Shown: positions 16,290-31,510 of the stretch, piece after piece | How positions within the stretch are numbered: the stretch's first letter is position 1 | How the letters are laid out: each line of letters opens with the position of its first letter | Source of the DNA: Candidatus Brocadia sp. | GTDB lineage: Bacteria; Planctomycetota; Brocadiia; Brocadiales; Brocadiaceae | Reading direction: 5' to 3' | NCBI GenBank assembly: GCA_021650915.1 | Contig: CP091279.1 | Location: 3,660,001 to 3,692,000 of the forward strand | DNA length: 32,000 nucleotides | The notes under the pieces: model-generated | What the model saw: the letters and a program-made list of their open reading frames with translations, nothing else | Databases searched by the model: none | What the model was told of the DNA's origin: nothing | Translations under genes and position numbers: made by a program

Positions 16290-16365
16290 GGCATGGATTC
16301 GCGTGCACAGCAAGGCATGCAGGGAAAACGGGCGCACGTTTTGTCTCTGAGCGCACAAAAACAGG

Positions 16366-17715
16366 ATGAGTAAAAAACCCAATCTCATCTTAACGGATGA
16401 TGAAGATACGTTTCGAAACATTATGACAAAAGAGCTCAGCCGCATGGGCTATAACGTAGTCAGTTGCGCCAGCGGCGCTGAGGCCTTAAAAAATATCGAA
16501 GAACGGGATTTTGATATCGTCATACTCGACATCAATATGCCGGTAATGAACGGAATCGAACTTTTAAAAAAGGTAAAGGCATTGGATTCTACGACGGAGG
16601 TAATCGTTCTTACCGGCCAGGGAACAATTGAAAATGCCGTTCAGGCCATTAAGCTTGGCGCTTATGATTATGTAACAAAGCCATGCCGGTTGACTGAACT
16701 GCAGATCTTGTTACAAAAGGCATTAGAGAAGAGGCAGTTAAATAAGGAGAACGTGCATCTGAAAAGGCTGGTGAAGGATGCCCAAAAAACTCCTCTGCTG
16801 ATTGGAAACGGCGCTGCAATAACCGCAGTGCATAAAATGGTTGAAAAGATTGCCGCATCCGACGCTATTGTCTTACTTCAGGGGGAAAGCGGCACCGGAA
16901 AGGAGCTTGTTGCCCAATCGATTCATCAGCACAGTCCGCGGGCAAATAGACCCTGTGTTGTGGTGAATTGCGCCACCCTGCAGGAAACCCTCCTGGAAAG
17001 CGAGCTTTTTGGCCATGTCAAAGGGGCGTTCACGGGAGCCACGGAGCTGCGCGTGGGTCTGTTTGAGATCGCTGATGGAGGCACCATATTTTTAGATGAA
17101 ATCGGCGAGCTGTCCGTTAATACCCAGGCAAAACTGCTTCGTGTCGTTCAATCGGGTGAAATCCGGCGTGTTGGCGACAACCGGATAATCACGGTAGATA
17201 CCAGAATCATTGCGGCCACAAACAAGAATTTAGCGGCAGAGGTAAAAAATGGCCGCTTCCGGGAAGACTTGTATTTCCGCTTAAATGTGATTACGGTATC
17301 TCTTCCTCCTTTACGGGAACGGAGAGAAGACATCCCGCTTTTAATCGATCATTTTCTCCGGAACTTTTGCCGGAAGAGAGAGAAAAAGCATGTCCTTCCG
17401 GAGGCGCTAACGGCAATGACCCGGTATTCCTGGCCAGGGAACGTGCGTGAGCTGGAAAACACCGTGGAACGTCTCGTCGTGCTGGCAGAAGGCGAGGATA
17501 TCTCCGTGGATGATTTGCCGGAAAACATTCGCGGGATATCCCCTTTCCGGAATGCAGCGGGGTGCCCGGAAGGGACCCTTTCGGACGTGGAAAAGAAGCA
17601 TATCCTCAGGGTATTGCATGAAAAACAGTGCAACAAGACCCTTGCCGCAGAGGCCCTGGGCATATCGCTGAAAACGTTATACAACAAATTAAAGGTTTAC
17701 CATATCGATCTGTAA
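16366..17715 (+). CDS. Sigma-54-dependent response regulator (NtrC family: REC + AAA+ + Fis-type HTH)
   Basis: REC domain ([11 protein letters not shown]). Walker A GESGTGKE. The GAFTGA sigma-54 contact loop is present verbatim. Walker [11 protein letters not shown]-terminal [24 protein letters not shown]. Confidence 0.92.
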
Positions 17716-17761: not shown

Positions 17762-18505
17762 ATGGTACCCGTGCCGTACGACGATAAAAGTCAGGCGATG
17801 AATCCGGATATTTCCCTTGTTATTCCTGTCTATAACGAGGCCGAGAATATTGACCCCCTTGGTCTTTCTATCATCAGCGCCATGCAAGGTCAGAACTACG
17901 AAGTAATCCTTGTCGATGACGGGAGCACCGATGGCAGCGGTCAAAAACTGAACGAATGGTGCGCCAGATATACAAATTTCCGCACCATCCATTTCAGGAG
18001 GAATGCCGGCCAGACGGCAGCCCTGGACGCTGGTTTTAAACGCGCATCAGGGAGATGTGTGGTTTCCATGGATGCGGATATGCAGAACGATCCCGCCGAC
18101 ATTCCGAAATTGCTTGAAAAACTCAAGACGTATGATATGGTATGCGGATGGAGGCAGAAGAGGAACGACCCCTGGATCAAGCGTATCTCAGCAAAGGTTG
18201 CAAATTTCATCCGAAATAAACTGTCACAGGAAGATATTAAAGATACGGGATGTTCCCTGAAGGCATACCGGAGGGAGTGTCTCGGCCGGATCAAATTATA
18301 TAATGGCATGCATCGGTTTTTGCCAACCTTGTTCAGGATGGAAGGTTTTACGGTTGCCGAGATTATCGTAAACCACTACCCGCGGCGGTTTGGAAAATCG
18401 AAGTATGGTATATCGAACAGGGCATTCAGGGCGTTCATCGATCTGTTGGCTGTGCGATGGATGAAAAAACGTAAACTTCATTATGAGGTAGATCATGATG
18501 GCTAA
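17762..18505 (+). CDS. GT2 polyprenyl-phosphate glycosyltransferase (ArnC/GtrB/Dpm1-like)
   Basis: SLVIPVYNE, VDDGSTDGS, DADMQNDP (DxD) and two C-terminal TM helices. An alternative start at 17798 (MNPDISLVIP) is equally plausible. Confidence 0.85.
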   Translation: MVPVPYDDKSQAMNPDISLVIPVYNEAENIDPLGLSIISAMQGQNYEVILVDDGSTDGSGQKLNEWCARYTNFRTIHFRRNAGQTAALDAGFKRASGRCVVSMDADMQNDPADIPKLLEKLKTYDMVCGWRQKRNDPWIKRISAKVANFIRNKLSQEDIKDTGCSLKAYRRECLGRIKLYNGMHRFLPTLFRMEGFTVAEIIVNHYPRRFGKSKYGISNRAFRAFIDLLAVRWMKKRKLHYEVDHDG

Positions 18506-18827
18506 TCTTGCAATGCATATCAATGCATGGGTGATCTTAGGATTTCTTGGACAATTTTTGTTTGGGTCCAGATTTTTCGTGCAATGGATTGTTTCGGAGA
18601 GGCGCGGCGAAAGTATCATCCCCGAGGTATTCTGGTATCTGAGCATGGCGGGGAGCGCCATATTGCTCACCTATGCAATCTACCGGCGCGACCCTGTGTT
18701 TATCATGGGGCAATGTTCCGGGCTCTTTATCTACGTACGCAATGTCATGCTGATCTATAAAAAGAAAAAAATAGTGTCCGCGTCTGCAGACGAGGGGTTC
18801 GGATTACCAGAGACTTTTTCAAAATAA
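18495..18827 (+). CDS. Small membrane protein with lipid-A-biosynthesis N-terminal (LAB_N) domain
   Basis: GFLGQFLFGSRFFVQWIVSERRGESIIPEVFWYLSMAGSAILLTYAIYRRDPVFI matches my memory of the PF07578 pattern. Its start overlaps the GT2 stop by 11 nt, which suggests translational coupling. Confidence 0.75.
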   Translation: MMANLAMHINAWVILGFLGQFLFGSRFFVQWIVSERRGESIIPEVFWYLSMAGSAILLTYAIYRRDPVFIMGQCSGLFIYVRNVMLIYKKKKIVSASADEGFGLPETFSK

Positions 18828-18862
18828 CTTTGCTCCTGAACGTATGTCATTTTGCCGGTAAA

Positions 18863-20443
18863 ATGAGTATAAGCGCGCGTTATCTGAATTTCCGGTGCAG
18901 GATAAGCCTGCTCTTTTTGGTTTGTCTTTTATTACGGCTGTGTTTTAGCGGCAAATATCTGGACAGTTGCGATAGTATAGACTTTGCCCTGGGGCTGAGA
19001 GACTACGACCTGTCTCTCCTTCAGCCGCATTTCCCTGGTTATCCCGTCTATATATTCATCTCAGGACTTTTTTTTAAACTGCTCCATAACGATGTGTGGG
19101 CATTGGCGCTGCCCGGTGTATTGTTTGGCAGTCTTAGCGTCTATCCGCTCTCTTTTCTTGCCAGACGGTTATTTTCAGAAAAAGTAGCCACCCTGACAGC
19201 CATGCTCTATCTCATCAATCCACTCTGCTGGTTGCAGGCGGAAAGGCCAACCTCAGATGCACTGGGTTTCTTCTTCATCATGCTGTCCGCCCATTATTTG
19301 TATCAGGCACTTACGTCGCACGCCCGGACAATTCATGCCGTTCCTGGTGAGGCGCATTGCAATACGGCCATCCGTAAGGCGAGACAGAAAAAATTCCGAG
19401 TACCAAAGACGCTCATGAGGAGTTTCGCGCCTCGTGTGTGGTGTGGCGACAGAAATCTCTTTTTGGGCAGCTTGGCCTTAGGCGTTGGGTTGGGTGTGCG
19501 ACTTTCTTATTCTCCCTTTCTTGTCTTATGGATAGCGACGGTATTTGCTGTTCGGAAGAGACCTTGTCGGATAGCTGCTCTTGTGTGGCGTTTGCGGGGC
19601 CTTGCTGTTGGCGTTTGCTTGTGGTTTCTCCCGCAAATTGGTTACACAGGCTGGCGCGCCTTTTTTCAAAACGGTTTTTCATTTTCACGCGGCCATTTTA
19701 CCGATTGGGGTGGCTCGGTGTTCACCTCTCATGGATTGGAGCGGGTCGCCTCTTTTATAAAGTCTGTCTGGGTGTTCGGACTGGGCGGCTGGTGGTATGA
19801 TACCTCATGTTTACGGTTGGTCCCTTCCCTGATTATTGCGATCTCTCTTTTTTGTTTCTTTAGAAATTATCCCTTTGACCGTCGGGAGTGGTTCCTGGGA
19901 GTATATGGCGTCCCGTATCTGCTCTGGGTGATTTTGGGGCAAAATGTGGCAAATCCGCGGCATCTCCTGCCCCTTATGCCGATGCTGTGCATGATGATTG
20001 CGTACGGACTGTGCAAGGCCTGCGAAAGAGGTTGCAAAGGCGTTTCTCTCGTCTTCATCCTGTTGCTGACTTTTTGCATGGCAGTCACGTCGCTTAAATT
20101 AGTCATAAAATATTGTCATGATGTCCCGGCCCCGATACAATTAATCCGATTTTTAGAGAGACACAGTAATCCCATTTCTTCGAGAATTTACTGCAGCAAT
20201 GAGGAAAGATTCTTTGACTACTATGTCCCGCAATGGGATGTGAGAACGGTGCGGAACAGAACCGAGTTACAAAGGGATGTACTATCCTCATTGGAAACCC
20301 CGCAACAGATCCTTATCGTTCATTCCCCTGGAGAGATCGAACAATTTGGTGTAACACGCCCGCCAACAGCTACCTTTCAAGGAAATCCTTATGCCGATAG
20401 CGCACGGGAAGGATTGTTGCTTTATACCCTGACTGAGTGGTAA
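18863..20443 (+). CDS. Polytopic GT-C fold glycosyltransferase (ArnT / PMT / GT39-83-like)
   Basis: >10 predicted TM helices. An acidic first-loop motif (CDSIDFALGLRDYD) followed by HFPGYPVY. A C-terminal soluble domain. Context: GT2 + LAB_N. The track start is a TTG at 18830; the ATG is at 18863. Confidence 0.75.
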   Translation: MSISARYLNFRCRISLLFLVCLLLRLCFSGKYLDSCDSIDFALGLRDYDLSLLQPHFPGYPVYIFISGLFFKLLHNDVWALALPGVLFGSLSVYPLSFLARRLFSEKVATLTAMLYLINPLCWLQAERPTSDALGFFFIMLSAHYLYQALTSHARTIHAVPGEAHCNTAIRKARQKKFRVPKTLMRSFAPRVWCGDRNLFLGSLALGVGLGVRLSYSPFLVLWIATVFAVRKRPCRIAALVWRLRGLAVGVCLWFLPQIGYTGWRAFFQNGFSFSRGHFTDWGGSVFTSHGLERVASFIKSVWVFGLGGWWYDTSCLRLVPSLIIAISLFCFFRNYPFDRREWFLGVYGVPYLLWVILGQNVANPRHLLPLMPMLCMMIAYGLCKACERGCKGVSLVFILLLTFCMAVTSLKLVIKYCHDVPAPIQLIRFLERHSNPISSRIYCSNEERFFDYYVPQWDVRTVRNRTELQRDVLSSLETPQQILIVHSPGEIEQFGVTRPPTATFQGNPYADSAREGLLLYTLTEW

Positions 20444-20522: not shown

Positions 20523-20728
20523 TCCTTCCAGCCAGTCTGGCTTCGTCAAAAGAAAAGATTGTTTAACTTTTATCTTACTCCATTTCATAGAGTTACCGCA
20601 CAACTCTTCCCTCCCTGCGTATTTCGAAAACATTCGGCACTCTCATTGCTTTTGGTGAAAAGTGCAGTTGCGTGATGCTTAAGGAAAGGAATTTTCGTTG
20701 GCGGTTGAAGGTTTAGGGTTGTACGGAC

Positions 20729-20865
20729 GTAACACTTTAGTTTTTTGAAAAATTCCAGTAATGATGCGATTATCGTACATGGTAGAGGCAATTCATGAAT
20801 TGCCTTTACCTATTGACCCTAAGGTGTTTTCAGCTATTGACATTTTCAAAAAACTAAAGTGTTAC
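20729..20865. mobile_element. MITE-like element (family E), 137 bp
   Basis: TIRs gtaacactttagttttttgaaaaat (20729-20753) and attttcaaaaaactaaagtgttac (20842-20865). The core hairpin ggtagaggcaattcatgaattgcctttacc (20781-20810) differs from the cores of the other copies. Confidence 0.65.
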
Positions 20866-20932
20866 AAAACTTCTTTTTTTGTAAGTTTTTTCACAAACCC
20901 CCTTTCAAGAGGTACCGTTTTTTATGAGTGAA

Positions 20933-21024
20933 AGATTGCTTCGCTTCACTCGCAATGACAACGTGCAGTGTGCCATCAAAGTGTATGATCGCTGTCATTG
21001 CGAGGGCCTTTTCCGAAGCAATCT
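20933..21024. repeat. ~90-bp palindromic element (cattgcgag / cgaagcaatc type)
   Basis: agattgcttcgcttcactcgcaatgaca (20933-20960) and tgtcattgcgagggccttttccgaagcaatct (20993-21024) are inverted copies separated by 32 nt. Confidence 0.7.
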
Positions 21025-21070
21025 CCCCGCTTTCATAAAGGAGATTTGGCTGCGGCTGTGTTGCGCCAGG

Positions 21071-21186
21071 CTATAAGCATGACATCCCTTCGGGAGTACA
21101 GAATTGCTATTTTGCTCACTCGTAGTGATTGTGAGCGAAGGTACGCTGAATAGATACGAGAAATTTTCAAAAGACTAAATTGTTAC
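21071..21186. mobile_element. Solo right half of a long family-E element
   Basis: ctataagcatgacatcccttcgggagtacagaattgc...cactcgtagtgattgtgagcgaaggtacgctgaatagatacgagaaattttcaaaagactaaattgttac aligns with 8512-8627 at roughly 85-90% by eye. No left partner is present. It ends 6 nt before the ATG at 21193. Confidence 0.65.
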
Positions 21187-21192
21187 GTGCGG

Positions 21193-22428
21193 ATGAAGCT
21201 GAAGAGAAACTTGAGAAAGAATAATAATCAAAAAATCATACTCGTAACAGGTGCAACGGGTTTCCTGGGAGGTTGCATAACAAGGAAACTTTTTGAGGCA
21301 GGGTTTCACCTGAAACTCCTTGTCAGGGATTCACATCAGGTAAAAGCGCGGGAGAGAATTTCCGAAATTATCCCGTCATTGAGAGGCGCGAAGCCGTTCT
21401 CTGACCGTGTGGAGTTGGTCGATGGGGATATCTCTCATAAGTATTTCGGGCTAAACGCGAAGGATTATGTGCGGTTATCAGACATGGTTGATGAGGTATT
21501 CCACTGTGCTGCGGCAACGAAGTTTTCCTATGAATCAGACAATATGCTGGTGCAGACGAATGTCTATGGCGCCGAACACGTAGCATGGTTTTGCCTATCA
21601 GGCAAAAGAAAAAGGCTTCATCACATGAGTACGGCATACGTGGCAGGAGCAAGGCGCGACACCGTTTTTGAGCACGAATTAGAGCAGAATCAGATCTTTA
21701 ACAACAATTACGAAAAATCGAAATTTGAAGCCGAGAGATTGCTGCAACAGTTTATTGCCCGCTATCGTCTCCCGGTAACAATCTACCGGCCAAGCATCAT
21801 TGTTGGCGATTCCATGACGGGTGTTACCCGTAATTACGACAATATCTACGTGTTTGGTAAGGGATTGCATCACCTGAAAAATTATGAAATGCGAAAGAAC
21901 AGCAGAGACACGCCAGGGAACAACAAAAAGAGCGCGGGCTATTTGTCATCCCTGAGGATCCCTGGCGATAAACATGCCACGATCAATTTGGTGCCGGTGG
22001 ACTATGTCACTCAGGCAATCGCTGCCATCTCCGGACAGGAACAGAGCATACACAAGACCTTTCAGATTGTAAATCCATCCCCGCCCACGCTTGGTGAACT
22101 AGCGGAGTGGATGTCGGTTGCAACAGGGATTCATCGGGTGAGGATCGTGCCCAGGCACGAATTCCAAACGCAGCCGGAGACGGCAGAGGAAGCAATGTAT
22201 TTAAAAGGGACGGAAACATTTCAGCCCTACATGTTTGGAGAGCCTCAATTTGATTCCACTAATACCAGGAGTATGTTAAGCGGCACAACGATCGAATGCC
22301 CTTTCATTACCCAGGAAAGCATCAACCGCTTTATTCAGTACGCCCTTTCCACCAATTGGGGTAAGAAATTGCCCGTCACGGAAAAAGAATGGTCGCCCAG
22401 GCACGTTGAAAGTATCAAAGCCCCATGA
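21193..22428 (+). CDS. Extended SDR of the thioester-reductase / fatty-acyl reductase type (NAD_binding_4-like)
   Basis: Rossmann motif ILVTGATGFLGG. GDISHKYFGL..DYVRL...VDEVFHCAA. Catalytic YEKSKFEAE (YxxxK). IYRPSIIVGDSMTG. The track start is a GTG at 21187; the ATG is at 21193. I see no obvious SD sequence. Confidence 0.8.
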   Translation: MKLKRNLRKNNNQKIILVTGATGFLGGCITRKLFEAGFHLKLLVRDSHQVKARERISEIIPSLRGAKPFSDRVELVDGDISHKYFGLNAKDYVRLSDMVDEVFHCAAATKFSYESDNMLVQTNVYGAEHVAWFCLSGKRKRLHHMSTAYVAGARRDTVFEHELEQNQIFNNNYEKSKFEAERLLQQFIARYRLPVTIYRPSIIVGDSMTGVTRNYDNIYVFGKGLHHLKNYEMRKNSRDTPGNNKKSAGYLSSLRIPGDKHATINLVPVDYVTQAIAAISGQEQSIHKTFQIVNPSPPTLGELAEWMSVATGIHRVRIVPRHEFQTQPETAEEAMYLKGTETFQPYMFGEPQFDSTNTRSMLSGTTIECPFITQESINRFIQYALSTNWGKKLPVTEKEWSPRHVESIKAP

Positions 22429-22456
22429 CAATTTTTCAAACGCCAACGATGCATCC

Positions 22457-22822
22457 ATGAATAAAAGACCGGAAATCCCTGAAAATATTACGCATGCTGA
22501 GTACTTTAATCGCTTGTTAAAAGACAGGGTGAACCATGCTCCAATCTCTAAAATATCCGGTCTCGACGCTGTCATCCAATTTGAGATAACGGACGGGGAA
22601 AACGGAATATGGTGCGTCGTGGTCGAAAACGGTTTCGTTACCGAAGTGACAAAGGAGACGCTTGTGAAGCCCACCTGCGCCTTTATCCTGGACAGCAATA
22701 CGTTTCTCTCTATTCTCAGGCGGGAAATAACGCCTCAAAAGGCTTTTTTCCAAGGTAAAGTTGCCATTAAGGGCAATATGCTTCTGGCTCTCAGAATGAA
22801 TATTTTAGTCAATTACCTGTAA
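22457..22822 (+). CDS. SCP2 sterol/lipid-carrier domain protein
   Basis: AVIQFEITDGENGIWCVVVENG...ILDSNTFLSILRREITPQKAFFQGKVAIKGNMLLALRM is the typical SCP-2 end. The start at 22457 (MNKRPEIP) avoids overlap with the upstream gene; the track start is 22406. Confidence 0.75.
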   Translation: MNKRPEIPENITHAEYFNRLLKDRVNHAPISKISGLDAVIQFEITDGENGIWCVVVENGFVTEVTKETLVKPTCAFILDSNTFLSILRREITPQKAFFQGKVAIKGNMLLALRMNILVNYL

Positions 22823-22900
22823 TTATTCTACCAACGACGCTGATTTGTATTATGCAAAGCATTCTGTTGTGAACAAAAGAAAAAACCAGAGGTTTTCATC

Positions 22901-25216
22901 GTGAAGCAATACGTTCATATTCTCCTTAAATTCAGAATACTAATCTTAGTCTGCATTGTCATCATAACGGCAATATTTGGTTACTATGCCAGGGAAATGA
23001 GGACCGATAATTCCATCGAGATATGGCTTTCAAAGAATGACAAGGACCTGGAATATTATAAGACCTTTTTAAAGAATTTTGGAGACGAGGAGTTTTTCAT
23101 CGTAGCATTCAGCGCCCCTGATATTTTCACGAAAGACTCTATCCAGTATATTAACGCCATTGCGGAAAAACTGAAAGTACTGGAAGGCGTTACAGGGGTA
23201 ATTTCTCTGGCCGATGTATTCAAAGACAAGATCACCTCCCCTGTTTTCAAGGAAAAAATCCAGACTCAACAGGGTCGCTCTGTAATGAACGTCTTCAAAC
23301 AGCAATTGCTCGCAGATGCAGGGTATCAAAATACGATTGTTTCTAAAAACGGCAAAACTACCGCCATCATTGCCACCATACAATGTGCAGGCCCGGAATC
23401 GAGGAAACAATTAATAAGCAAGGTCAAGAAGGCGCTTGATGAAATGCCCGTTGGACCAATGGACACAAAGCAGAAAAAACGAAATTATCATTTAGCCGGC
23501 CCGTCCGTGGTAAATGTTGAGCTTGATCAGATGTCAAAAAAAGACATGGACAAATTTACCCCCCTCATGTTTGCATTATCAATTATCGTGTTAGGATGCC
23601 TGTTTCGGAATTTTTCCGGTGTCATCATCCCTTTGCTAACGGTTGGAGTTTGCATCATCTGGATTACCGGTTGTTTTGTGTTGTTTGGACAGACGATGAA
23701 CATGATTGCAAACATGCTTCTCCCGCTGACCTTTATCATTGCCCTTTCAGCCTCGATTCATCTGATCAGTCATTATTACCACGAGAGTAAAGTATCCATC
23801 CGGAAAGAAGATGCCATTTGCCAGGCCTTACGGCAAGTCGGTATTCCGATTCTTATGACCACGATCACCACGGCAATTGGGTTTGTTTCACTGGCAACCA
23901 GCAGCATTCCTCCCGTTTTCATCACCGGTTTATTTATGAGCGGGTGTGCATTGCTTACGTTTATTATCAGCATGACGTTTATACCCATACTGCTTTCCTT
24001 TGTCCCATCTTTCACGGTTGCATATCCGGGAAATAAAGCTTCAGCGAGAAACGATTCTGCAAGGCATCCGGACGGAGAGCGAGGCATCGGACTTCTCCTC
24101 CTTCGCCTCAGTCGCCTGATGGCAAGACACAAGGCGCTCATCCTTTCCTGTGTTCTTGGCATGGGATTATTCTTTGCCTGGGGTATCTCAAAACTTCAGA
24201 TTGAATCGGATCTCATGGCATCCTTCCCCGCAAAGAGCCAGATAGCAAGGGACACCGCCTATATTGAAAAGCGCCTGATGGGTTTGCTGCCGGTGGAAAT
24301 CGTTGCCGAAACAACCAATGGCATGAGCATACTTCAGCCAAACCTGCTGAATAATCTGGTCGGTCTCCAGCGCTATCTTCGTAAAATACCCGAAGTGACA
24401 GGTTCGACTTCCATTGCAAATTATATCCAGAAGACCCATCAAATCGTAAATCACGATAATCCTCGGTATTACTCTATACCAGACACACAAAAAGAGGCCA
24501 CAGACTATTTAAAAATGGCTTCTGTATATGGCGACAAATATATTCATTGCCTGTATACACAAGACTACACTGATGCACGGATATCCGTACGAATGAAGCA
24601 GGTTGGTTCAAATCGCTATCAGTCAGTTATACGGTCGATAAAGGAATACATCCGCAAGCATCTTGATACAACCGCATTGTCATGGCATATTACCGGGATC
24701 GTTCCCCTGTTAATCAATGTTCAGGACAACATCCTCCGGAGTGAAATACAGTCCTTTTCCCTGGCCTTTTTTCTAACGTTTCTTTCTACGGCAGTGGTAT
24801 TAAAATCCTTTAAAATCGGGCTTATTTGCATCATACCGAATTTGTTGCCTGGCACGATAACCCTGGGTCTGATGGGATTCACCGGCATGAAACTCGACGC
24901 AGCGACCATCATGATTGCCAGCATTGCGCTGGGAATATCCGTCGACAATACCATCCACATCTTTTACCGGTTTAAAAACGAATTGTCTGTTGACGGAGAT
25001 TATTCAAAGGCGGTTTGCCGTACCTTGCAGGGAGCCGGGAAAACCGCCTTGTTTACTTCCCTGTCGGCAGCCTTTGGGTTTATGGTCTTTTCCTTTTCAA
25101 GCTTTAAACCGGTGCAATATTTTGGTGTGCTCACCAGTGTGACCATGATAAATGCGATCGTATCTGATTTATTTATTTCCCCCTGCTGTCTGTTGTTATT
25201 TAAACCAAGGTTTTAA
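22901..25216 (+). CDS. MMPL/RND-superfamily lipid exporter (HpnN/MmpL-like, two 6-TM halves)
   Basis: 771 aa with an N-terminal TM helix, a periplasmic domain and a 5-TM bundle, and then the same arrangement repeated (sterol-sensing-like segments). GTG start with RBS agagg. Typical MMPL size and topology. Confidence 0.8.
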   Translation: MKQYVHILLKFRILILVCIVIITAIFGYYAREMRTDNSIEIWLSKNDKDLEYYKTFLKNFGDEEFFIVAFSAPDIFTKDSIQYINAIAEKLKVLEGVTGVISLADVFKDKITSPVFKEKIQTQQGRSVMNVFKQQLLADAGYQNTIVSKNGKTTAIIATIQCAGPESRKQLISKVKKALDEMPVGPMDTKQKKRNYHLAGPSVVNVELDQMSKKDMDKFTPLMFALSIIVLGCLFRNFSGVIIPLLTVGVCIIWITGCFVLFGQTMNMIANMLLPLTFIIALSASIHLISHYYHESKVSIRKEDAICQALRQVGIPILMTTITTAIGFVSLATSSIPPVFITGLFMSGCALLTFIISMTFIPILLSFVPSFTVAYPGNKASARNDSARHPDGERGIGLLLLRLSRLMARHKALILSCVLGMGLFFAWGISKLQIESDLMASFPAKSQIARDTAYIEKRLMGLLPVEIVAETTNGMSILQPNLLNNLVGLQRYLRKIPEVTGSTSIANYIQKTHQIVNHDNPRYYSIPDTQKEATDYLKMASVYGDKYIHCLYTQDYTDARISVRMKQVGSNRYQSVIRSIKEYIRKHLDTTALSWHITGIVPLLINVQDNILRSEIQSFSLAFFLTFLSTAVVLKSFKIGLICIIPNLLPGTITLGLMGFTGMKLDAATIMIASIALGISVDNTIHIFYRFKNELSVDGDYSKAVCRTLQGAGKTALFTSLSAAFGFMVFSFSSFKPVQYFGVLTSVTMINAIVSDLFISPCCLLLFKPRF

Positions 25217-25223
25217 CCGGAAG

Positions 25224-25403
25224 GCAGGGGCAGGTTTGAAACCTGCCCCTGCAATAATGTAATGCTAAGGAATTTCAAAGTTGTGGTTGTAGAGCGACGA
25301 GCCTCGTCGCTCTACCTTGAAATGTATAGGAATTTCAAACACCCCCCATAATCCCCCCGTAAACGGAGGGAAATGTTTTTTGCTCCCCCCAGTTTACGGG
25401 GGG
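25224..25403. repeat. REP-like hairpin cluster directly after the transporter stop
   Basis: gcaggggcaggtttgaaacctgcccctgc (25224-25252). gtagagcgacgagcctcgtcgctctac (25289-25315), flanked by ggaatttcaaa motifs. ccccccgtaaac (25353-25364) / gtttacgggggg (25392-25403). Confidence 0.85.
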
Positions 25404-25452
25404 AAACAGGGGGTAGAGTTGCCAAAGGCATAATTCATAAATTACGGGAACT

Positions 25453-26661
25453 ATGATGATACGTACCGGAATCAATAACAATTCTGCAATCAATACTGAT
25501 CTTTTCACGAAGAACGGAAACATCCGATTTGATCAATATCCGAGCAAGCCCATCATTCAGGATGCTGAATGGTTTGGTATGCCAATAGATCCCTGGCTGA
25601 GGCACATCATTGCAATTCATTTTAACCCTGACGTTGGCTCACCCTATTGGCTCCGGAAGGAAAAGGAATTGGGCATCGACGCAAGAAGGGATATTTCTTC
25701 GATGGAAGATTTACCGATCCTCGGACCGATGGAGGAGGAAGACCTTCGACGGTATCCATTGGAATATTTTATCCCAAAAATTTACCTGGAGAACAAGGCA
25801 TCGTTTATTCTGGGTGAAACGGCAGGGACAACCGGTCTCCCAAAAACAACCGCTTACCTGAGAGAAGAGTTCTCCGTCACCTTTGTTGAGTGGTTCCGGT
25901 ATATCGCAGAGTACCGGGGATTTCCTCACGACGCGCAGTGGCTATGGGTTGGCCCCGGTGGCCCGCATATTATTGGCAAGGCGGTAGGGCCGGTAGCGCA
26001 GAGCATGGGAAGTATGGATCCGTTTTCCATTGATATGGATCCGCGATGGGTGAAAAAACTCAAACCCGATTCCCTGGGATATAAAAGGTACATCAGCCAC
26101 ATCCTTGAACAGGCGATGGATATCGTGAACCGGCAGCACATCGAAGTAATCTATTCAACGCCACCCCTGCTGCTCAAACTGGCTGAGATGATGCAGCGTC
26201 GTCAAAGGATGCAGATCCGTGGGATTCACTATGGCGGAGTGGCCATTGAACAGGAACAACTCAAAAGGTTTCGTGGCGAACTCTTTCCGAACGCCGTTCA
26301 TATTGCCGGCTACGGAAATACCCTGTTTGGTCTGTGTATGGAAATTGAAGAATCTGCAAGTGGCGATCTTGATTATTATCCTCCCGGTCCTCGTATGGCC
26401 GTTCAGGTTGTTTCCACGGAAGACGGCATTCAACCTGACAAAAATCGTCTTACCCAGCTCGTTAAATACGGTGAAATAGGTCAGGTCGTGTGCCACCGGT
26501 TGGATGCATCTTTTTTCATCCCTAATATGTTTGAAAGGGACGAGGCTGTACGGATTGCAGCCACGGAAAAGGTACAGTCACTTGGTATTTACCAGGACGG
26601 CGTCAGAAATCCGTCGCTGTTGAAGGGACTAGAAACAAATGCGAAGGTAGGGGTATACTGA
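25453..26661 (+). CDS. Adenylate-forming enzyme, PaaK / coenzyme-F390-synthetase / CapK-like (ANL superfamily)
   Basis: P-loop-like GETAGTTGLPKTT in place of the canonical SSGTTGxPK. The size (402 aa) and layout resemble phenylacetate-CoA-ligase-family proteins. GYGNT motif region (IAGYGNTLFG). Confidence 0.65.
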   Translation: MMIRTGINNNSAINTDLFTKNGNIRFDQYPSKPIIQDAEWFGMPIDPWLRHIIAIHFNPDVGSPYWLRKEKELGIDARRDISSMEDLPILGPMEEEDLRRYPLEYFIPKIYLENKASFILGETAGTTGLPKTTAYLREEFSVTFVEWFRYIAEYRGFPHDAQWLWVGPGGPHIIGKAVGPVAQSMGSMDPFSIDMDPRWVKKLKPDSLGYKRYISHILEQAMDIVNRQHIEVIYSTPPLLLKLAEMMQRRQRMQIRGIHYGGVAIEQEQLKRFRGELFPNAVHIAGYGNTLFGLCMEIEESASGDLDYYPPGPRMAVQVVSTEDGIQPDKNRLTQLVKYGEIGQVVCHRLDASFFIPNMFERDEAVRIAATEKVQSLGIYQDGVRNPSLLKGLETNAKVGVY

Positions 26662-26669
26662 CATGAATT

Positions 26670-26832
26670 AGGCCTTCGGCGACTTTTTGATGTAGAGCGA
26701 CGAGGCTCGTCGCTCTACAACCGTGGCTTTGAAATTCCTTGAACGTTGAATTGGGCCTTCGGCGACTTTGTTGCAATTACACGTTTTTTCAACAAAATTC
26801 CACCCCCTTCACCCCCGCCAGCGGGGGACAGT
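26670..26832. repeat. REP-like hairpin plus family-D copy 3 (truncated by the IS)
   Basis: ttaggccttcggcgactttttga (26669-26691). gtagagcgacgaggctcgtcgctctac (26692-26718). tttgaaattcctt. Then gggccttcggcgactttgttgcaattacacg...gccagcgggggacagtc (26753-26832), which stops where the other copies continue with gttatcaccctcactgag. Confidence 0.8.
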
Positions 26833-26838
26833 CTCATA

Positions 26839-28351
26839 GCTGGTTCAATCTTGTAGATTGAACCATAAGTTTTGAACCGAAACAGGAGCTTGGACTAGCG
26901 CTATAACATGAAGACGTATCAAATGTTTAGTAGCGTTGTCAAGTGGAGACCTGAGAAAAGTCCTCCAATGTATAGTTGTCACGCATCAAAGCCGTTGTAG
27001 TAATAGGCAAGCCGAATTTTGGTAACGTTCAGCGCCCCAGCAACACTCCATTTGCTCACATTCACCCGCAGGTTAACCGTACGCATGACGCGCTCTACTT
27101 TACTTGTCGTTCTGCCATTGAGCCTCTTTTCTATCGCCGTAAACATATCAGGCCTGGCATTCTCAAGATAGGATGCGGTATGAGCATATCCCTTCGACAA
27201 ACAATGCTGAATCACCGCATCCAATCGTTTCCTCTTGGACTCTATCATTTTCTCGATGGTCTTCTGACAATCAACCAATGGCCGTATCGCACAGACCTCC
27301 ATAAGCTCCGACATCACCTCCAGCCATTCTTTCCCCTTGCTCTTGACCCCATCTTGCCACAATACATACTTTGCCTGATACGGAATATGCCACAAACATC
27401 TCTGTACAAGCACCTTGATCTTACCTTTCAAACTATCCAAAATAGAGGTGTCTCCATCGGTTATCAAAAGAAACCGGGAAAACTTCCTGAACACCTTAAC
27501 ACTCTTACCAAAAAGCTTATCCCAACTACCGTTGTAATCCCCTATGTCAAGCCCTGCCACTCTCACCCCTCCACCGCTCTTGTATTGCACAAAGACCTTG
27601 AGTTCCTTGCCTCGTTTGGCTATCCCCTTAATCCCTACCCCTGTCCCGTCTGCTTCTCCCAGGGGAAGTCCCTTCTCGTCGAGTTGAAAATCTATCTCTG
27701 CTGCCGTCTTTTGTACCGATTTCCATATCGTCATCTTGTCTACTGTCCAGCCAAACATCGACACGATCTTCTTCGCTACCCGGTAGGTCGTTAACGATCC
27801 TACCAGCCCAAGCTTCCGATACGTCTCCGGTGGTATTCGCTTCATCCGCTCCATCCCCAGAAGCTTTCGCGTTATATACATCTTATGACCGCACCTCTTG
27901 CACTGCACCTGCAACTGCTCTAATCTCAACCACTGAAAGACCGTCAGTATCTTCGTCTCTTTTCCATGCCTCGTCTTCCAGATAAACTCCTTGTCATTCC
28001 CACATTCGTCGCAGCAAAATGGCTTCCGTGATTGCGCCATCGCACTCTCACCAAAACCAACCACGATCTTCTGAATAAAATCCCTTAATATCTCCGGCAG
28101 TATCTTGCAAAATGCCTTGAGAATCGACTCCAGGCTGCCGTCCTTTAATTCAACCCGAATTTGACAACCAAATTCTATTGTGATACCATCTGTGCATGGG
28201 GTTGCTCCCATATAGCCCTCCTTTTCTTTATGGTTTAGTTTCTTGTATCAAAACTATTTTTTACCATATTTGGAGGGCTTTTTCTTTAACCAAGTCTCTC
28301 TTTTTCTACTCTACCAAATGTTTAGGTTCAATCGAGGACGATTGAACCAGC
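26839..28351. mobile_element. Insertion sequence, 1513 bp, single transposase gene
   Basis: The ends are gctggttcaatcttgtagattgaacc (26839-) and ggttcaatcgaggacgattgaaccagc (-28351). These are imperfect inverted repeats, and each contains its own 9-bp hairpin ggttcaatc/gattgaacc. No unambiguous target-site duplication (flanks ..gtctcata / aaatagac..). Confidence 0.75.
26979..28211 (-). CDS. Transposase (probable DDE type with N-terminal zinc finger; family not assignable by eye, possibly ISLre2/ISKra4-like)
   Basis: 410 aa. CCDEC..CKRCGH zinc-finger-like pair. Candidate acidic triad contexts EADGTGV, LLITDGDTS and TSKVERVMRTVNLR. RBS aaaggaggg upstream. Bounded by the inverted repeats. Confidence 0.75.
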   Translation of the reverse strand: MGATPCTDGITIEFGCQIRVELKDGSLESILKAFCKILPEILRDFIQKIVVGFGESAMAQSRKPFCCDECGNDKEFIWKTRHGKETKILTVFQWLRLEQLQVQCKRCGHKMYITRKLLGMERMKRIPPETYRKLGLVGSLTTYRVAKKIVSMFGWTVDKMTIWKSVQKTAAEIDFQLDEKGLPLGEADGTGVGIKGIAKRGKELKVFVQYKSGGGVRVAGLDIGDYNGSWDKLFGKSVKVFRKFSRFLLITDGDTSILDSLKGKIKVLVQRCLWHIPYQAKYVLWQDGVKSKGKEWLEVMSELMEVCAIRPLVDCQKTIEKMIESKRKRLDAVIQHCLSKGYAHTASYLENARPDMFTAIEKRLNGRTTSKVERVMRTVNLRVNVSKWSVAGALNVTKIRLAYYYNGFDA

Positions 28352-28393
28352 AAATAGACACGTTTACCGTAATTTTTCAGATGAAAGGATCGT

Positions 28394-30442
28394 ATGAAAT
28401 TATCCGAAACCAAACTTGAACTTCTGGCGCCTGCCGGCCGCTGGGAGGCGTTGACAGCGGTAATAGAAGCCGGCGCTGATGCGGTATATATTGGCGGCAA
28501 ACGCTTCAACATGAGGCTTCACCGGTCTGACTTCAATTTCACGGATGAACAGATTGCAGAGGCCGTGCGATATGCCCATGCAAACGAAGCAAAACTGTAC
28601 GTCACGGTAAACAATCTGCTCGGTAATGACGAACTGAACGAGATAGCGCATTTCCTTACTTATTTACAGGAAATTCAGGTGGACGCGGTCATCGTCCAGG
28701 ACCTGGGTGTCTTGCATCTGATCAGGAAGACGGGCATTTCCATCCCGGTCCACATCAGCACGATGATGAATATCCATAACGTTGAATCCGCATTAACGCT
28801 GAAGGAATTGGGGGTGAGCCGCATTGTTACCTCCAGAGATATTTCCCTTGCTCAGGTGAAGGAAATACAGGAAAAGACCGGTATTGAAGTCGAGTATTTT
28901 ATCCATGGAGACCTGTGTGTATCCCAGAGCGGGCAATGTTATTCCAGCGGCGTGCTTTTTGGCAAGAGCGCCAATCGTGGAGAGTGTATGAAGCCGTGCC
29001 GATGGCACTACACCCTTGTGGAAAGCGCTTCCGGGCAACCCATAGGCGATCTGCCCTCAGGACACCTCCTTGCGATGAAGGATATGTGTCTCCTGAGACA
29101 TATCCCTGACCTTGTTCATGCGGGAATATGCTCATTGAAAATAGAGGGCCGCATGAGACACGCTGATCTTCTTAGAGAAATTGTCGGCGTTTATCGTGAG
29201 GCAATAGATGCCTATCGTGATAACCCTGCCGCTTATTACATGAATTTCGCGGCCTACGAGAAACTGTATAACCATCGGGTGCGAGAATTTACCACGTCCA
29301 TGGCATTTACACCGGCGTCTGCTTCTCTCGTCGATATCTCAGGGAGCCGTGAACCCCTCTTTTTAAGCCGCGCAGCAAAAGAGACGTCCCTCACGAAAGA
29401 AGATATTTATCATGATCCCTTTGAATCATTAAGCACAAAAAACACCGGGAAAGAAAAAATGATGAATTTTCGGATGCTGCGATTAAGAGCGGTAAAGCCC
29501 TTATTATCCGTAAAAATAAGCTCCCTGAATGCCCTGAAGGCGGCGTTGGATGCGGGCGCAGACCGCATCTATATGAGCGGAGAGGTCTCGCCGTTGAAAA
29601 AAGAGTTTTGGACAAAGGCATTGTATCGGGAGGCCTGTAACAGGGTGCATGATGCTGGTAAGACCATAGGAATGGCTACGCCACGCATAAATACCTCCCG
29701 CGAAATAGCTGATATGACGTGGTTGTTCGAGCAGGCCGCATCGTTGCCGGTCGATTATGTCCTGGTTCATAATCTGGGCGCAATGCGTCTTGCAAGGGAA
29801 TTTGAGCTAAAAATTCTGGCAGACTACTCGTTCAATGCCCTCAACGTGCGAGCTTTAAAACTTCTGAAAGAATTGGGGATCTCGGGGGCCACGGCATCCC
29901 TGGAATGTTCCTATAGCCATTTGAAACAACTATCTGACTATGCGTCATTGCCCCTGGAGTGTGTTGTCCACGGACCTGTTCCCGGTATGATACTTGAACA
30001 TTGTATCCCGGCCATGGTGATCTCTAAGTCGCACAAAAAGGAACACTGCAGACAGGTGTGTCAATATATGGGATACAGCCTCAGGGACGAACGGGGTGAA
30101 GTGCGACCCATCGAAATAGATCAATATTGCCGCAACCATCTCCTGCTTGCCAGGGATATATGCCTGCTGCCCTATCTTCAATCATTTATCCAAACAGGGG
30201 TAAAGGTGTTCAGGATCGAGGCGCAGTATTATGAAGATTCATTGGTAAAAACCCTGGTCGGTCTGTATCATAAGTATTTAAGCATATATGCAGAATATCC
30301 CGATATTTCATTACCGATACAAGAGAGTGAATGGGACATGTTGACCGAAAATAGTCCAAGGGAATTTAACCTCGGCGGCTATGGACAGGATATAACCCAC
30401 TCAAAAAGCACTGCAGCGGTGATGAAGAGTATCAGAGGGTAA
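28394..30442 (+). CDS. Double-domain peptidase-U32-family protein (RlhA/TrhP/UbiU-UbiV-type, probable Fe-S enzyme)
   Basis: N-terminal U32 TIM-barrel pattern (LELLAPAG..EALTAVIEAGADAVYIGG). Exact Cys motif C-X6-C-X15-C-X3-C (CVSQSGQC...GECMKPC). The second half repeats the fold (LLSVKISSLNALKAALDAGADRIYMSG) with C-X13-C-X14-C-X3-C. RBS aaagga. Confidence 0.85.
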   Translation: MKLSETKLELLAPAGRWEALTAVIEAGADAVYIGGKRFNMRLHRSDFNFTDEQIAEAVRYAHANEAKLYVTVNNLLGNDELNEIAHFLTYLQEIQVDAVIVQDLGVLHLIRKTGISIPVHISTMMNIHNVESALTLKELGVSRIVTSRDISLAQVKEIQEKTGIEVEYFIHGDLCVSQSGQCYSSGVLFGKSANRGECMKPCRWHYTLVESASGQPIGDLPSGHLLAMKDMCLLRHIPDLVHAGICSLKIEGRMRHADLLREIVGVYREAIDAYRDNPAAYYMNFAAYEKLYNHRVREFTTSMAFTPASASLVDISGSREPLFLSRAAKETSLTKEDIYHDPFESLSTKNTGKEKMMNFRMLRLRAVKPLLSVKISSLNALKAALDAGADRIYMSGEVSPLKKEFWTKALYREACNRVHDAGKTIGMATPRINTSREIADMTWLFEQAASLPVDYVLVHNLGAMRLAREFELKILADYSFNALNVRALKLLKELGISGATASLECSYSHLKQLSDYASLPLECVVHGPVPGMILEHCIPAMVISKSHKKEHCRQVCQYMGYSLRDERGEVRPIEIDQYCRNHLLLARDICLLPYLQSFIQTGVKVFRIEAQYYEDSLVKTLVGLYHKYLSIYAEYPDISLPIQESEWDMLTENSPREFNLGGYGQDITHSKSTAAVMKSIRG

Positions 30443-30475: not shown

Positions 30476-31510
30476 ATGGCCACTCAAAAGAGAACGCTTC
30501 TCTCATCTTGTTTTACCTGGGGAAAACTCATTTTCATCCTGCTTTGTGTCTCTTTTTTCTGCCTGGAATCCTATATTTTGCTCGTTCAACATTTTGAGGG
30601 CAATAAGGATGTAAGCCACTTATCAGGCAATTTTCCGCAGAATAGAGGTGCCTTATCGCAGGAGAAACAAAGGGATGAATTCAGTTTCGCAGTTGTAGGA
30701 GATACAAAGAGTTCCGGGACATTTGAAAGGATAGCCGAGAAATTGCGCAAAGAACCCTTGTCCTTCATCGTTTTTCTGGGTGATTTTGTTTATAAGGGTA
30801 CCGAAGGCGAACACAACTTCTTTAAGGCTGAATATGCAACCGAGTTTTCCTTTCCCTATCCAGCGTTTTTTGTCCTGGGAAACCATGACGTTGACAGCAA
30901 GAATTTCCCGATATCAAGATTCGAAGAAGTGTATGGCCCCAGCATCTTCTCATTCGAATATCAGGAATGTCTCTTTGTTGTCCTCCGTATCCTGGACAAC
31001 CCGTACCCGAATGAAGAAAGCCTCCGGTTTTTAGAGAAGTTAATTTCAGAAAAGGCCGCATCCCATTATCAGAAGACATTTGTCTTTATGCATATCCCGC
31101 CTCCCATATCTTCTGACTTCAGCGCCAGGTCGTTTGAAGGCTCTGACGAGATTGTTTCTTTAATCGAAAAACTGAAGCCGACCTACGTCATAACAGGTGA
31201 TTACCATGGATACGCGAGAATTAAAAGGAAAGGCACCGTGTATTTAGTAACCGGTGGAGGGGGTGCGCACCTTGAAGCAAAAAAATTTGGCAGTTTTCAT
31301 CACGCCATCGTTTTGAGGGTAGTGAAGGATGATGTTTCTGAAAGGATACTCGTTGTTGACAGGGACGAGGACCTCGAGGACCGGATTGAAAGATTTGCAT
31401 TAGCCAGCGCATATCCATGGTTAAAGGACAATTTGCTTGTGACAGCTTTTTTAAACAGTGTTGTACTAGCAATTTTAGTACTGTTATGTAGACGTATTTA
31501 CCAAAATTAG
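30476..31510 (+). CDS. Membrane-anchored calcineurin-like metallophosphoesterase
   Basis: Motifs FAVVGDTK, FLGDFVYKG, VLGNHD, FMHIPP and TGDYHGY. An N-terminal TM helix and a C-terminal hydrophobic tail. RBS ggagg. Confidence 0.85.
   Translation: MATQKRTLLSSCFTWGKLIFILLCVSFFCLESYILLVQHFEGNKDVSHLSGNFPQNRGALSQEKQRDEFSFAVVGDTKSSGTFERIAEKLRKEPLSFIVFLGDFVYKGTEGEHNFFKAEYATEFSFPYPAFFVLGNHDVDSKNFPISRFEEVYGPSIFSFEYQECLFVVLRILDNPYPNEESLRFLEKLISEKAASHYQKTFVFMHIPPPISSDFSARSFEGSDEIVSLIEKLKPTYVITGDYHGYARIKRKGTVYLVTGGGGAHLEAKKFGSFHHAIVLRVVKDDVSERILVVDRDEDLEDRIERFALASAYPWLKDNLLVTAFLNSVVLAILVLLCRRIYQN

Follow-up and report, generated by a model that had tools for sequence, protein, structure and literature searches.

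A widely conserved gene cluster of Candidatus Brocadia that may activate, reduce and export a carboxylic acid without a carrier protein

The DNA analysed here, a 32,000-nt stretch of Candidatus Brocadia sp. (CP091279.1, positions 3,660,001–3,692,000; hereafter the window, to whose positions the coordinates refer), contains four co-directional genes encoding a short-chain dehydrogenase/reductase (SDR) of the thioester-reductase type, an SCP2 lipid-binding protein, an exporter of the MMPL family and an adenylating enzyme. An original prediction made from the sequence alone had singled out these genes; the four open reading frames (ORFs) were confirmed among those of the window, and the types assigned to the first three products were confirmed by Pfam and NCBIfam. 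Our comparative analysis suggests, with confidence and doubt evenly balanced, that the locus belongs to a conserved envelope-metabolite tailoring and export system, of which the window holds the 5′ part, and in which an acid would be activated and reduced without a carrier protein. The co-location of the genes is not due to chance, since 40–50 of the 54 anammox loci compared show the same neighbours, as do most of the 31 non-anammox loci. The four-gene boundary originally drawn proved too narrow: a U32 protein and a class-III aminotransferase encoded further downstream also belong to the unit.

Homologous loci were sought in one genome per species with a 13-sequence alignment, which returned 80 loci; a Sumerlaeia-like type of cluster came from a second, separate search. 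Gene families were counted by tblastn and ORF clustering in 85 loci (54 anammox and 31 non-anammox) plus the window. No NCBIfam equivalog model attained its cutoff for any protein of the unit, the homologues bear generic names in their source records, and full-text literature searches retrieved no published description of the cluster; no curated one was found either.

The adenylating enzyme is an EhpF-family protein

The gene of the adenylating enzyme, hereafter the ligase (25453–26661, + strand), encodes a protein of 402 aa that comprises an ANL N-terminal domain and a C-terminal stub of about 40 residues. In a phmmer search of the PDB, EhpF was the sole significant sequence match (3L2K/3HGU, E=8e-32), residues 49–370 of the query aligning with residues 24–338 of the 366-residue chain; the identity between the two proteins is 29% (BLASTP). 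When the AlphaFold model of the ligase (pLDDT 87, pTM 0.85) was submitted to Foldseek, EhpF again ranked first (E=4e-26, TMt 0.80–0.82), followed by a second tier of folds consisting of PaaK, BT_0428 and ClxA (E ~1e-15, TM 0.55–0.63). Pfam yielded only a sub-threshold AMP-binding match. The gene had been described as encoding a PaaK/F390-synthetase-like adenylating enzyme; the general type of adenylating enzyme stands, but the PaaK/F390 identity was rejected, since phmmer detects EhpF and not PaaK, which is the next-nearest fold and related at the superfamily level. Furthermore, the ligase does not group with CapK-type, sugar or amino-acid enzymes.

The P-loop of the protein, GETAGTTGLPK (residues 121–131), had been regarded as unusual. 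It is, however, normal for the EhpF family, whose consensus is ETGGTTGxPK and whose namesake carries ESGGTTGAPK. Across 78 ligase sequences, the invariant residues include G125, G128, Y287-G288-N289, E361-R362-D363 and Y402, and no cysteine is invariant. The E-R-D triplet, which would be the A8/hinge motif of ANL enzymes, is followed by only ~40 residues that end in an invariant G-x-Y; therefore, the usual ANL C-terminal domain of ~110 residues, with its A10 lysine, is missing. Proteins of this family are rare, amounting to 599 clusters (50% identity) among 1.84e9 representatives. The closest homologues, at 82% identity, come from Ca. Brocadia, the host being an anammox bacterium of the Brocadia lineage.

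The partner of EhpF, EhpG, belongs by annotation to the aldehyde dehydrogenase family, and a haloarchaeal homologue of the ligase is encoded beside an aldehyde dehydrogenase; both pairings serve as precedents for a ligase and a reductase that operate together without a carrier. Reportedly, Bera et al. proposed in 2010 a carrier-free scheme in which EhpF cooperates with a separate reductase, EhpG, to obtain an aldehyde from a carboxylate. The likeness to EhpF supports placing the ligase in the one ANL subfamily for which such feeding of a separate, carrier-free reductase has been proposed. Streptomyces homologues are annotated in RefSeq as 'arylcarboxylate reductase' or 'phenazine biosynthesis protein', and literature searches disclosed no source for the former name.

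Reductase, SCP2 protein and exporter

The reductase (413 aa; 21187–22428, + strand, with an alternative start at 21193) is a stand-alone extended SDR of the thioester-reductase type (R-SDR). It matches PF07993 (NAD_binding_4, E=1e-51) and the thioester-reductase domain model TIGR01746 (E=7e-49; 167 bits, under the curated cutoff of 213), and displays the motifs TGATGFLGG and Y175-x3-K179. Residues T21, G22, G25, G28, S148, T149, Y175 and K179, which represent the TGxxGxxG motif and the Ser/Thr-Tyr-Lys triad, are conserved in 57 homologues, among which no cysteine is invariant. The nearest PDB relatives are MxaA, which scores best, the terminal reductase domains of polyketide synthases (PKS) and the reductase (R) domains of carboxylic acid reductases (CAR); a match to PRK07201 reveals a resemblance to proteins of the fatty acyl-CoA reductase (FAR) type. 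Assignment of the protein as HpnA was rejected, as the HpnA match trails the thioester-reductase match by 30 orders of magnitude.

The ORF of the SCP2 protein spans positions 22406–22822 (+ strand; PF02036, 3e-15). Its true start is likely the ATG at 22457, since this yields a protein of 121 aa, as in Kuenenia and Loosdrechtia. The protein also shows a weak match to UbiT (1e-5; 25.5 bits versus a cutoff of 46.9). The exporter gene (22901–25216, + strand) encodes a 771-aa RND pump of the HAE3/MMPL type that matches PF03176 (MMPL, 2e-37) in two stretches above the gathering score, TIGR00921 (HAE3, 3e-67) under the curated cutoff, and, more weakly, HpnN and sterol-sensing-domain models.

Conservation of the cluster, fused proteins and lack of a carrier gene

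Every anammox genus sampled (Brocadia, Kuenenia, Jettenia, Loosdrechtia, Wunengus, Scalindua and Anammoxibacter) has the reductase, SCP2, ligase and exporter genes as neighbours, and the same holds for at least five further lineages. A core formed by the reductase, SCP2, ligase, a small alpha/beta-hydrolase and an exporter is also present in Desulfobacterales, Syntrophales, Lentisphaerae, Gemmataceae, Phycisphaerae, Sumerlaeia-like bacteria and an actinomycete metagenome-assembled genome (MAG), Tepidisphaerales being a further non-anammox lineage among the loci; cultured carriers such as Frigoriglobus tundricola (Gemmataceae) were identified. Reductase/SCP2 genes were found in 44 of the 54 anammox and 26 of the 31 non-anammox loci, MMPL genes in 46 and 12, U32 genes in 49 and 9 (plus two non-anammox loci with a shorter U32-like gene), and aminotransferase genes in 40 and 22, respectively. 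The hydrolase, of ~220 aa, is the most constant partner outside the anammox bacteria (28/31); it was captured in fewer anammox loci (19/54) because in Brocadiaceae it lies 8–9 kb downstream of the ligase. A lipoprotein of unknown function occurs in 13 non-anammox loci and one anammox locus. Where MMPL is lacking, ABC-2 or MacB/FtsX exporters and YceI-like proteins are encoded in its place; some type of exporter (MMPL, ABC-2 or MacB) is present in nearly all loci, in agreement with the export role predicted at the outset. A minimal version of the cluster, designated type B, consists of reductase-SCP2, ligase, hydrolase and exporter, without the aminotransferase.

Several of these families are also joined in single polypeptides. 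The NAD_binding_4 reductase and SCP2 are fused in ~17 loci, five of them confirmed by Pfam, and in another clade SCP2 is fused to the N-terminus of the ligase; both arrangements lend support to the substrate-chaperone role that had been suggested for SCP2. Moreover, an alpha/beta-hydrolase of the cluster family is fused to the ligase in P0136, and a class-III aminotransferase to an EhpF-family ligase in P0184. A single ORF of 1073 aa at locus L084 (7877–11095) that seems to join an MMPL-like exporter to the ligase was left out of account: its MMPL part found no confirmation in Pfam, and an artefact of sequencing or assembly may be responsible.

No PP-binding domain was detected in any cluster protein that was scanned or had a precomputed Pfam list. 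At locus L071, the genes overlap end to end, leaving no room for an acyl carrier protein (ACP) gene, and none is present. Given that neither the ligase nor the reductase possesses an invariant cysteine, a covalent thioester relay in the style of Lux or EhpG is unlikely, and a relay of the LuxE/LuxC/EhpG type was rejected on this ground. The EhpF-type ligase, the conserved neighbours, the fusions and the lack of a carrier gene provide comparative evidence in favour of the split, ACP-free activation and reduction that had been proposed.

Genes downstream of the ligase

In the window, the ligase and U32 genes are separated by an ISH6-like insertion sequence (IS; 26831–28359, − strand), with a transposase gene at 26979–28211 (NF041731 ISH6, 6.5e-57, below the curated cutoff of 240 bits) and terminal inverted repeats of 20 nt at 26831 and 28340. 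The U32 gene starts ~3 to 720 nt after the ligase in all other anammox loci, and the order ligase, U32, aminotransferase is uninterrupted in Kuenenia, Loosdrechtia, Scalindua and Anammoxibacter; consequently, the IS represents an insertion into a conserved array. It may uncouple the U32 and aminotransferase genes from the upstream promoter in the window strain.

The double-U32 protein (682 aa; 28394–30442, + strand) has a UbiU-like N-terminal half and a second U32 domain in its C-terminal half, PF01136 matching in two stretches (6.5e-105). Among the NCBIfam models, TrhP (6e-60), UbiU (4e-54; 184 bits versus a cutoff of 440) and UbiV (2e-25; 90 versus 275) were recovered. Clusters of cysteines are visible in both halves of the translation. 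An RlhA orthologue was considered and rejected, since only the N-domains align, the C-terminal half aligning to a U32 domain and not to the RlhA C-terminus. By analogy, the double-U32 protein is a candidate O2-independent hydroxylase. It is followed by the gene of a membrane-anchored calcineurin-like phosphoesterase (30476–31510, + strand; Metallophos, 1e-12), whose membership of the cluster is uncertain: a phosphoesterase gene between U32 and aminotransferase is confined to the window and six loci of the Brocadia/Loosdrechtia type, which indicates a lineage-specific insert.

The window ends within the class-III aminotransferase gene (31660–32000, + strand), whose encoded N-terminus is 80% identical over 111 aa to the Kuenenia cluster aminotransferase. 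Its orthologues match Aminotran_3 and the PigE transaminase model (5e-77), the remaining matches being generic for class III; HemL and ArgD were rejected as identities, with no HemL match and an argD score below the cutoff. As the unit includes the U32 protein and the aminotransferase, the end product in this genome is more likely an amine, probably hydroxylated, than an alcohol. Of the aldehyde or alcohol product initially envisaged, the reduction would be retained and the alcohol would give way to the amine.

Proposed pathway and comparison with known systems

From the observed domain identities, synteny, gene fusions, lack of a carrier gene and conserved sigma-54 element (see below), we infer a series of chemical steps, their order and the substrate. 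The EhpF-family enzyme would adenylate a hydrophobic carboxylic acid at the expense of ATP, and the SDR would use NAD(P)H to reduce the activated carboxyl group to an aldehyde without a phosphopantetheinyl carrier. SCP2 would hold the greasy part of the substrate and hand it from ligase to reductase, acting as a non-covalent carrier. In this genome, the class-III aminotransferase would subsequently convert the aldehyde into a primary amine, as the analogy with TamA/TamH and PigE suggests, and the double-U32 protein would hydroxylate the compound without O2, in the manner of UbiU/UbiV/UbiT, TrhP and RlhA. The HAE3/MMPL pump would then take the product out of the inner membrane, and in anammox bacteria an ArnC/ArnT-like module may glycosylate it.

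The chemistry has known analogues (EhpF/EhpG, LuxCDE, CAR, TamA/TamH); an architecture in which an EhpF-type ligase and an SDR are combined with SCP2 in place of a carrier, U32, transaminase and exporter is without a known one. The closest relative of the ligase comes from the EhpF/EhpG pair of the D-alanylgriseoluteic acid phenazine pathway of Pantoea agglomerans (3L2K, 3HGU, 3HGV), in which the homologous enzyme has the same truncated ANL architecture and P-loop. Nevertheless, the partner encoded in the cluster is an SDR of the thioester-reductase type rather than an aldehyde dehydrogenase with a catalytic cysteine, the cluster adds SCP2, an RND exporter, U32 and a transaminase, its substrate is presumably more hydrophobic, and it is a widely conserved locus, core-like in anammox genomes, rather than an antibiotic cluster. 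LuxCDE similarly produces an aldehyde without ACP or CoA by means of an alpha/beta-hydrolase, an ATP-dependent acyl-activating enzyme of ~370–400 aa and an NAD(P)H-dependent reductase; however, no LuxE or aldehyde dehydrogenase Pfam match was obtained in the cluster, its reductase is an SDR, and the acyl-Cys relay of Lux has no counterpart. CAR, the terminal R domains of nonribosomal peptide synthetases (NRPS) and PKS, and the myxobacterial ElbD share with the cluster a homologous R-SDR and the order of ATP-dependent activation followed by hydride reduction, but each of them combines, in one polypeptide, a phosphopantetheinylated carrier domain with a complete two-domain adenylation enzyme; the cluster has neither feature.

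The serial use of adenylation, a thioester-reductase-type SDR and a class-III transaminase is common to the cluster, to TamA/TamH (tambjamine YP1) and to PigE (prodigiosin), and for TamA/TamH this route from acid to amine is established (PMC9594044). In TamA/TamH and PigE, the acyl group is ACP-bound, and transaminase and reductase form one polypeptide; the cluster has no ACP, and it is SCP2 that is fused to its reductase or ligase. As in UbiT/UbiU/UbiV, an SCP2 protein occurs together with two U32 domains; in the cluster, however, both U32 domains reside in one protein, the scores lie under the curated cutoffs and the N-terminal half is nearer to RlhA. Anammox bacteria are reported to use menaquinone rather than ubiquinone, and U32 occurs mainly in clusters of lineages that we take to be anaerobic. 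Finally, like HpnN, MmpL and BstA, the pump is an MMPL-family RND protein encoded beside genes for its presumed cargo, and the TPR and lipoprotein partners found in the clusters of some lineages recall BstC, although the pump matches the hopanoid and sterol transporter models only weakly.

Candidate substrates of the proposed pathway

A lipophilic aryl acid, most plausibly derived from the futalosine intermediate 1,4-dihydroxy-6-naphthoate, is a possible substrate that falls a little short of an even chance; an ordinary or host-specific fatty acid is a weaker candidate, and some other compound is slightly less probable again. The original prediction of a fatty or other acid can be sharpened to this extent, an aryl carboxylate being indicated at least as strongly as a fatty acid by the ligase relatives, the MqnD-like gene, U32 and YceI. 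The annotated relatives of the ligase, namely EhpF and the proteins with the RefSeq names given above, are all linked to aryl acids, and the next-nearest folds, PaaK and ClxA, are adenylating enzymes for aryl acids or arylacetates. Furthermore, an MqnD-like gene lies in the cluster or divergently beside it in 22 loci, which belong to Planctomycetota, an actinomycete MAG and Sumerlaeia-like bacteria. Its product, a cytoplasmic protein, matches PF02621 and, in the PDB, AF1704 (1e-53) and Thermus thermophilus MqnD (1e-38); a periplasmic BstB-like lipid binder was rejected as its identity, since there is no signal peptide, the Pfam match begins at residues 5–7 and the PDB relatives are AF1704 and MqnD. 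The distributions of the MqnD-like and U32 genes are almost complementary, both occurring together only at locus L083.

YceI-like proteins, which we take to be binders of polyisoprenoids or quinones, are present in clusters of type B. Next to the cluster, 33 of the 54 anammox loci and three others (L051, L052 and L078) carry genes for cytochrome b and multihaem cytochrome c. In Brocadiaceae (L001–L004 and many more), a split cytochrome b and two to three multihaem cytochromes c occupy the interval between aminotransferase and hydrolase, 4–10 kb downstream of the ligase; the multihaem genes beside the cluster in the three non-anammox loci are related to them.

On plasmid p1 of Streptomyces angustmyceticus (419577–432521; L092), paralogues of mqnA, mqnC, mqnD and mqnE are accompanied by genes for a ferredoxin, an alpha/beta-hydrolase and an 'arylcarboxylate reductase'. 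The MqnD paralogue, annotated as '1,4-dihydroxy-6-naphthoate synthase', directly adjoins this EhpF-family protein, and the gene content suggests that the region specifies a natural product built from reduced 1,4-dihydroxy-6-naphthoate.

Alternative explanations

A number of points weigh against the carrier-free pathway. A thioester of CoA or phosphopantetheine is the normal requirement of SDR thioester reductases, and enzymes of the EhpF type are without a thioester-forming domain; acceptance of an acyl-adenylate by the SDR is accordingly the weak point of the scheme, and CoA or a housekeeping ACP may intervene between ligase and reductase. Type B lacks the aminotransferase, and most clusters of aerobic lineages lack U32; both proteins are thus accessory, and their substrates could differ from the reductase product. 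The N-terminal half of the U32 protein is 41% identical to the N-domain of Escherichia coli RlhA and 31% to UbiU. As regards an aryl substrate, no MqnD-like gene is found in anammox or deltaproteobacterial clusters, none of the clusters examined contains a scaffold-forming gene (prenyltransferase, fatty acid synthase or PKS), and SCP2, a FAR-like reductase, a small serine hydrolase and lipid-type exporters would suit a fatty acid equally well. In the window itself, the IS and repeat insertions may have disturbed expression.

By analogy with lux, the hydrolase could free a fatty acid from acyl-ACP or from a lipid as LuxD does, the ligase and the SDR would parallel LuxE and LuxC, and the aminotransferase would generate a long-chain amine for an outer-membrane lipid exported by MMPL. 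We regard this scheme as somewhat unlikely, even though much of the cluster would accommodate it: the hydrolase is so constant a partner outside anammox bacteria and is fused to the ligase in P0136, the reductase resembles FAR-type proteins and PKS terminal reductases, SCP2, the MMPL/HpnN-like, ABC-2 and MacB/FtsX exporters and YceI are all lipid handlers, and the lack of scaffold-building genes would fit a common primary metabolite. Conversion of a fatty acid into an amine by a thioester reductase and a class-III transaminase is, moreover, documented (PMC9594044). Nonetheless, the annotated ligase relatives all act on, or are named for, aryl acids, and the recurrent MqnD-like gene has no role in a fatty-acid scheme. 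Known U32 hydroxylases act on aromatic or heteroaromatic carbons, and long-chain amine lipids are not known from taxa that bear the cluster, both of which count against it as well.

An undescribed branch of the futalosine/menaquinone pathway, a distinctly unlikely proposal in its full form, would have the EhpF-type ligase, SDR and SCP2 reduce the 6-carboxyl of a 1,4-dihydroxy-6-naphthoate-type intermediate, which would then be transaminated, hydroxylated on the ring without O2 and exported as an amino/hydroxy-naphthoquinone lipid or shuttle. SCP2 would here be a non-covalent stand-in for the phosphopantetheine arm. Where genes for cytochrome b and multihaem cytochrome c adjoin the cluster, namely in anammox bacteria and a few MAGs of deltaproteobacterial or unclassified origin, the product would serve these cytochromes.

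The reading initially put forward, in which the four genes convert (ladderane) fatty acids of anammox bacteria into alcohols for alcohol- and ether-linked lipids, now appears improbable. In its favour, the type B core has no aminotransferase, MxaA, the best PDB relative of the reductase, is alcohol-forming, and a B12-radical-SAM gene lies beside the cluster in Anammoxibacter and a Scalinduaceae MAG, the Anammoxibacter copy scoring 353 against a cutoff of 360 for TIGR04072 ('rSAM_ladder_B12'). Yet the cluster is common outside the known ladderane makers, for instance in Gemmataceae, Desulfobacterales and Lentisphaerae, and the aminotransferase and U32 belong to the cluster of every anammox genus. 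Published work on bacterial alkyl ethers favours reduction of an ester bond over the use of free alcohols. Moreover, a comparison of ladderane candidates (Rattray 2009) leaves U32, SCP2 and the aminotransferase unmentioned, its sole acyl-CoA-ligase-like gene lying in a type II fatty acid synthesis (FASII) cluster. Since many non-anammox bacteria carry the cluster, it is not specific to ladderanes and can be taken off the list of ladderane-specific candidates.

Still more improbable is the juxtaposition of two unrelated modules, reductase-SCP2-MMPL for lipid export on the one hand and ligase-U32-aminotransferase on the other, with U32 as an RNA hydroxylase like RlhA or TrhP and the aminotransferase engaged in amino-acid metabolism. 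The 236-nt hairpin spacer between MMPL and ligase, the IS between ligase and U32, the 41% identity of the U32 N-domain to RlhA and the generic class-III matches of the aminotransferase would all be compatible with such a division. However, the families stay together even though gene order is shuffled between lineages, fusions join SCP2 to both reductase and ligase, and the hydrolase and aminotransferase to ligases, and the C-terminal half of the U32 protein is a second U32 domain, which departs from the RlhA architecture.

Putative sigma-54 control, upstream genes and implications

A sigma-54-type −24/−12 promoter element, CGGCACTCTCATTGCT (20635–20650, + strand), is located between the PMT_2 glycosyltransferase and reductase genes and constitutes the only one-mismatch match to TGGCAC-N5-TTGC in the window. 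The element recurs in an aligned conserved block upstream of the reductase in five genera (Brocadia, Kuenenia, Loosdrechtia, Jettenia and some Scalindua). Further upstream, a two-component system is encoded by a sensor histidine kinase gene (14727–16289, + strand; HisKA and HATPase_c) and the gene of an NtrC-type sigma-54-dependent response regulator (16366–17715, + strand; Response_reg, Sigma54_activat and HTH_8). Such a pair of kinase and sigma-54 activator adjoins the cluster in Loosdrechtia, Anammoxibacter, Scalindua and several non-anammox loci, the activator family occurring in 23 of the 54 anammox and 6 of the 31 non-anammox loci. Because the −24/−12 element is conserved and an activator is encoded nearby, the locus is probably under sigma-54 control.

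Between the regulatory genes and the promoter lie genes for an ArnC-like glycosyltransferase of family 2 (GT2; 17762–18505), a small LAB_N membrane protein (18495–18827) and an ArnT-like PMT_2 glycosyltransferase (18830–20443), all on the + strand and identified by Pfam/NCBIfam. In three Brocadia, among them B. pituitae, the GT2-LAB_N pair separates SCP2 from MMPL within the cluster, and PMT_2 adjoins the cluster in Kuenenia, Scalindua and Anammoxibacter. On the strength of this synteny, the three genes are possibly an anammox-specific companion module that glycosylates the exported product. A porin gene is also located upstream of the cluster in the window.

If the proposed mechanism is true, the cluster represents a new mode of carboxylic acid reduction, in which a truncated adenylating enzyme and an SDR communicate through the non-covalent SCP2 chaperone rather than a phosphopantetheinyl carrier; this would interest enzymologists as well as engineers of acid-to-aldehyde and acid-to-amine cascades. 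Anammox bacteria, sulfate reducers, syntrophs and planctomycetes would then have in common an exported metabolite, which would be an amino lipid or else a modified naphthoquinone. It appears to be made under sigma-54 control, and in anammox bacteria its genes are interleaved with those of respiratory cytochromes.

Repeats and further features of the cluster loci and the window

The gap between promoter and reductase in the window contains ~440–500 nt of palindromic, MITE-like (miniature inverted-repeat transposable element) DNA (20680–21180), including a perfect 23-nt inverted repeat (20729–20751/20843–20865). This insert is absent from B. carolinensis and B. pituitae, in which the promoter-to-reductase distance is 111–114 nt. 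Hairpin repeats resembling repetitive extragenic palindromic (REP) elements occupy the MMPL-ligase spacer (25226–25413), which extends to 236 nt in the window versus ~65 nt in B. pituitae, and a related copy follows the ligase (26682–26740). The hairpins of this spacer were rejected as terminators, the scan having called no T-tract terminator there. Short palindromic repeat families, such as AGGGGCAGGTTTGAAACCTGCCCCT, GTAGAGCGACGAGCCTCGTCGCTCTAC and GTAACACTTTAGTTTTTTGAAAA, populate the spacers at 20680–21180, 25226–25413, 26682–26769 and 31507–31641; the corresponding spacers of other Brocadia lack them, which suggests mobile elements of the REP/MITE type.

Several genes accompany the cluster in individual lineages. 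A conserved predicted lipoprotein designated X683 (370–680 aa), with a lipobox and the motifs YAPVxVQE, WYPEHPK and NCGCYYKVFP, is encoded in ~17 loci, among them L071 (15116–16771), L079 (13234–14508), L088 (18095–19696) and L005 (15010–17061); it often adjoins the exporter and a TPR (TatT/RMD1-3-like) protein, and it has no Pfam or NCBIfam match. A secreted DUF5666-like protein of ~188 aa ending in CNFCH is encoded between SCP2 and MMPL in Kuenenia (L001, 6995–7561) and several Brocadia (L007, L010, L011, L013 and L050), and is absent from the window. Genes for B12-binding radical SAM proteins lie at the flanks of the cluster in two deep lineages of anammox bacteria and in two deltaproteobacterial MAGs (L005, 17195–18610; L028, ~16033–17439; L052, 4039–5427 and 14630–16081; L054, 6391 and 16541).

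Elsewhere in the window, two large paralogues (28–2394 and 3242–6841) with beta-helix, Big_1 and Laminin_G_3 domains are probably surface or S-layer-associated proteins, and their genes share identical DNA, for example at 256–270 and 817–831 and at 1648–1662 and 6095–6109. A sulfite-oxidase-type molybdopterin oxidoreductase (8654–10765, − strand; Oxidored_molyb and Mo-co_dimer) is encoded beside a DUF445 protein, and two bactofilin genes are arranged in tandem at 11165–12250.

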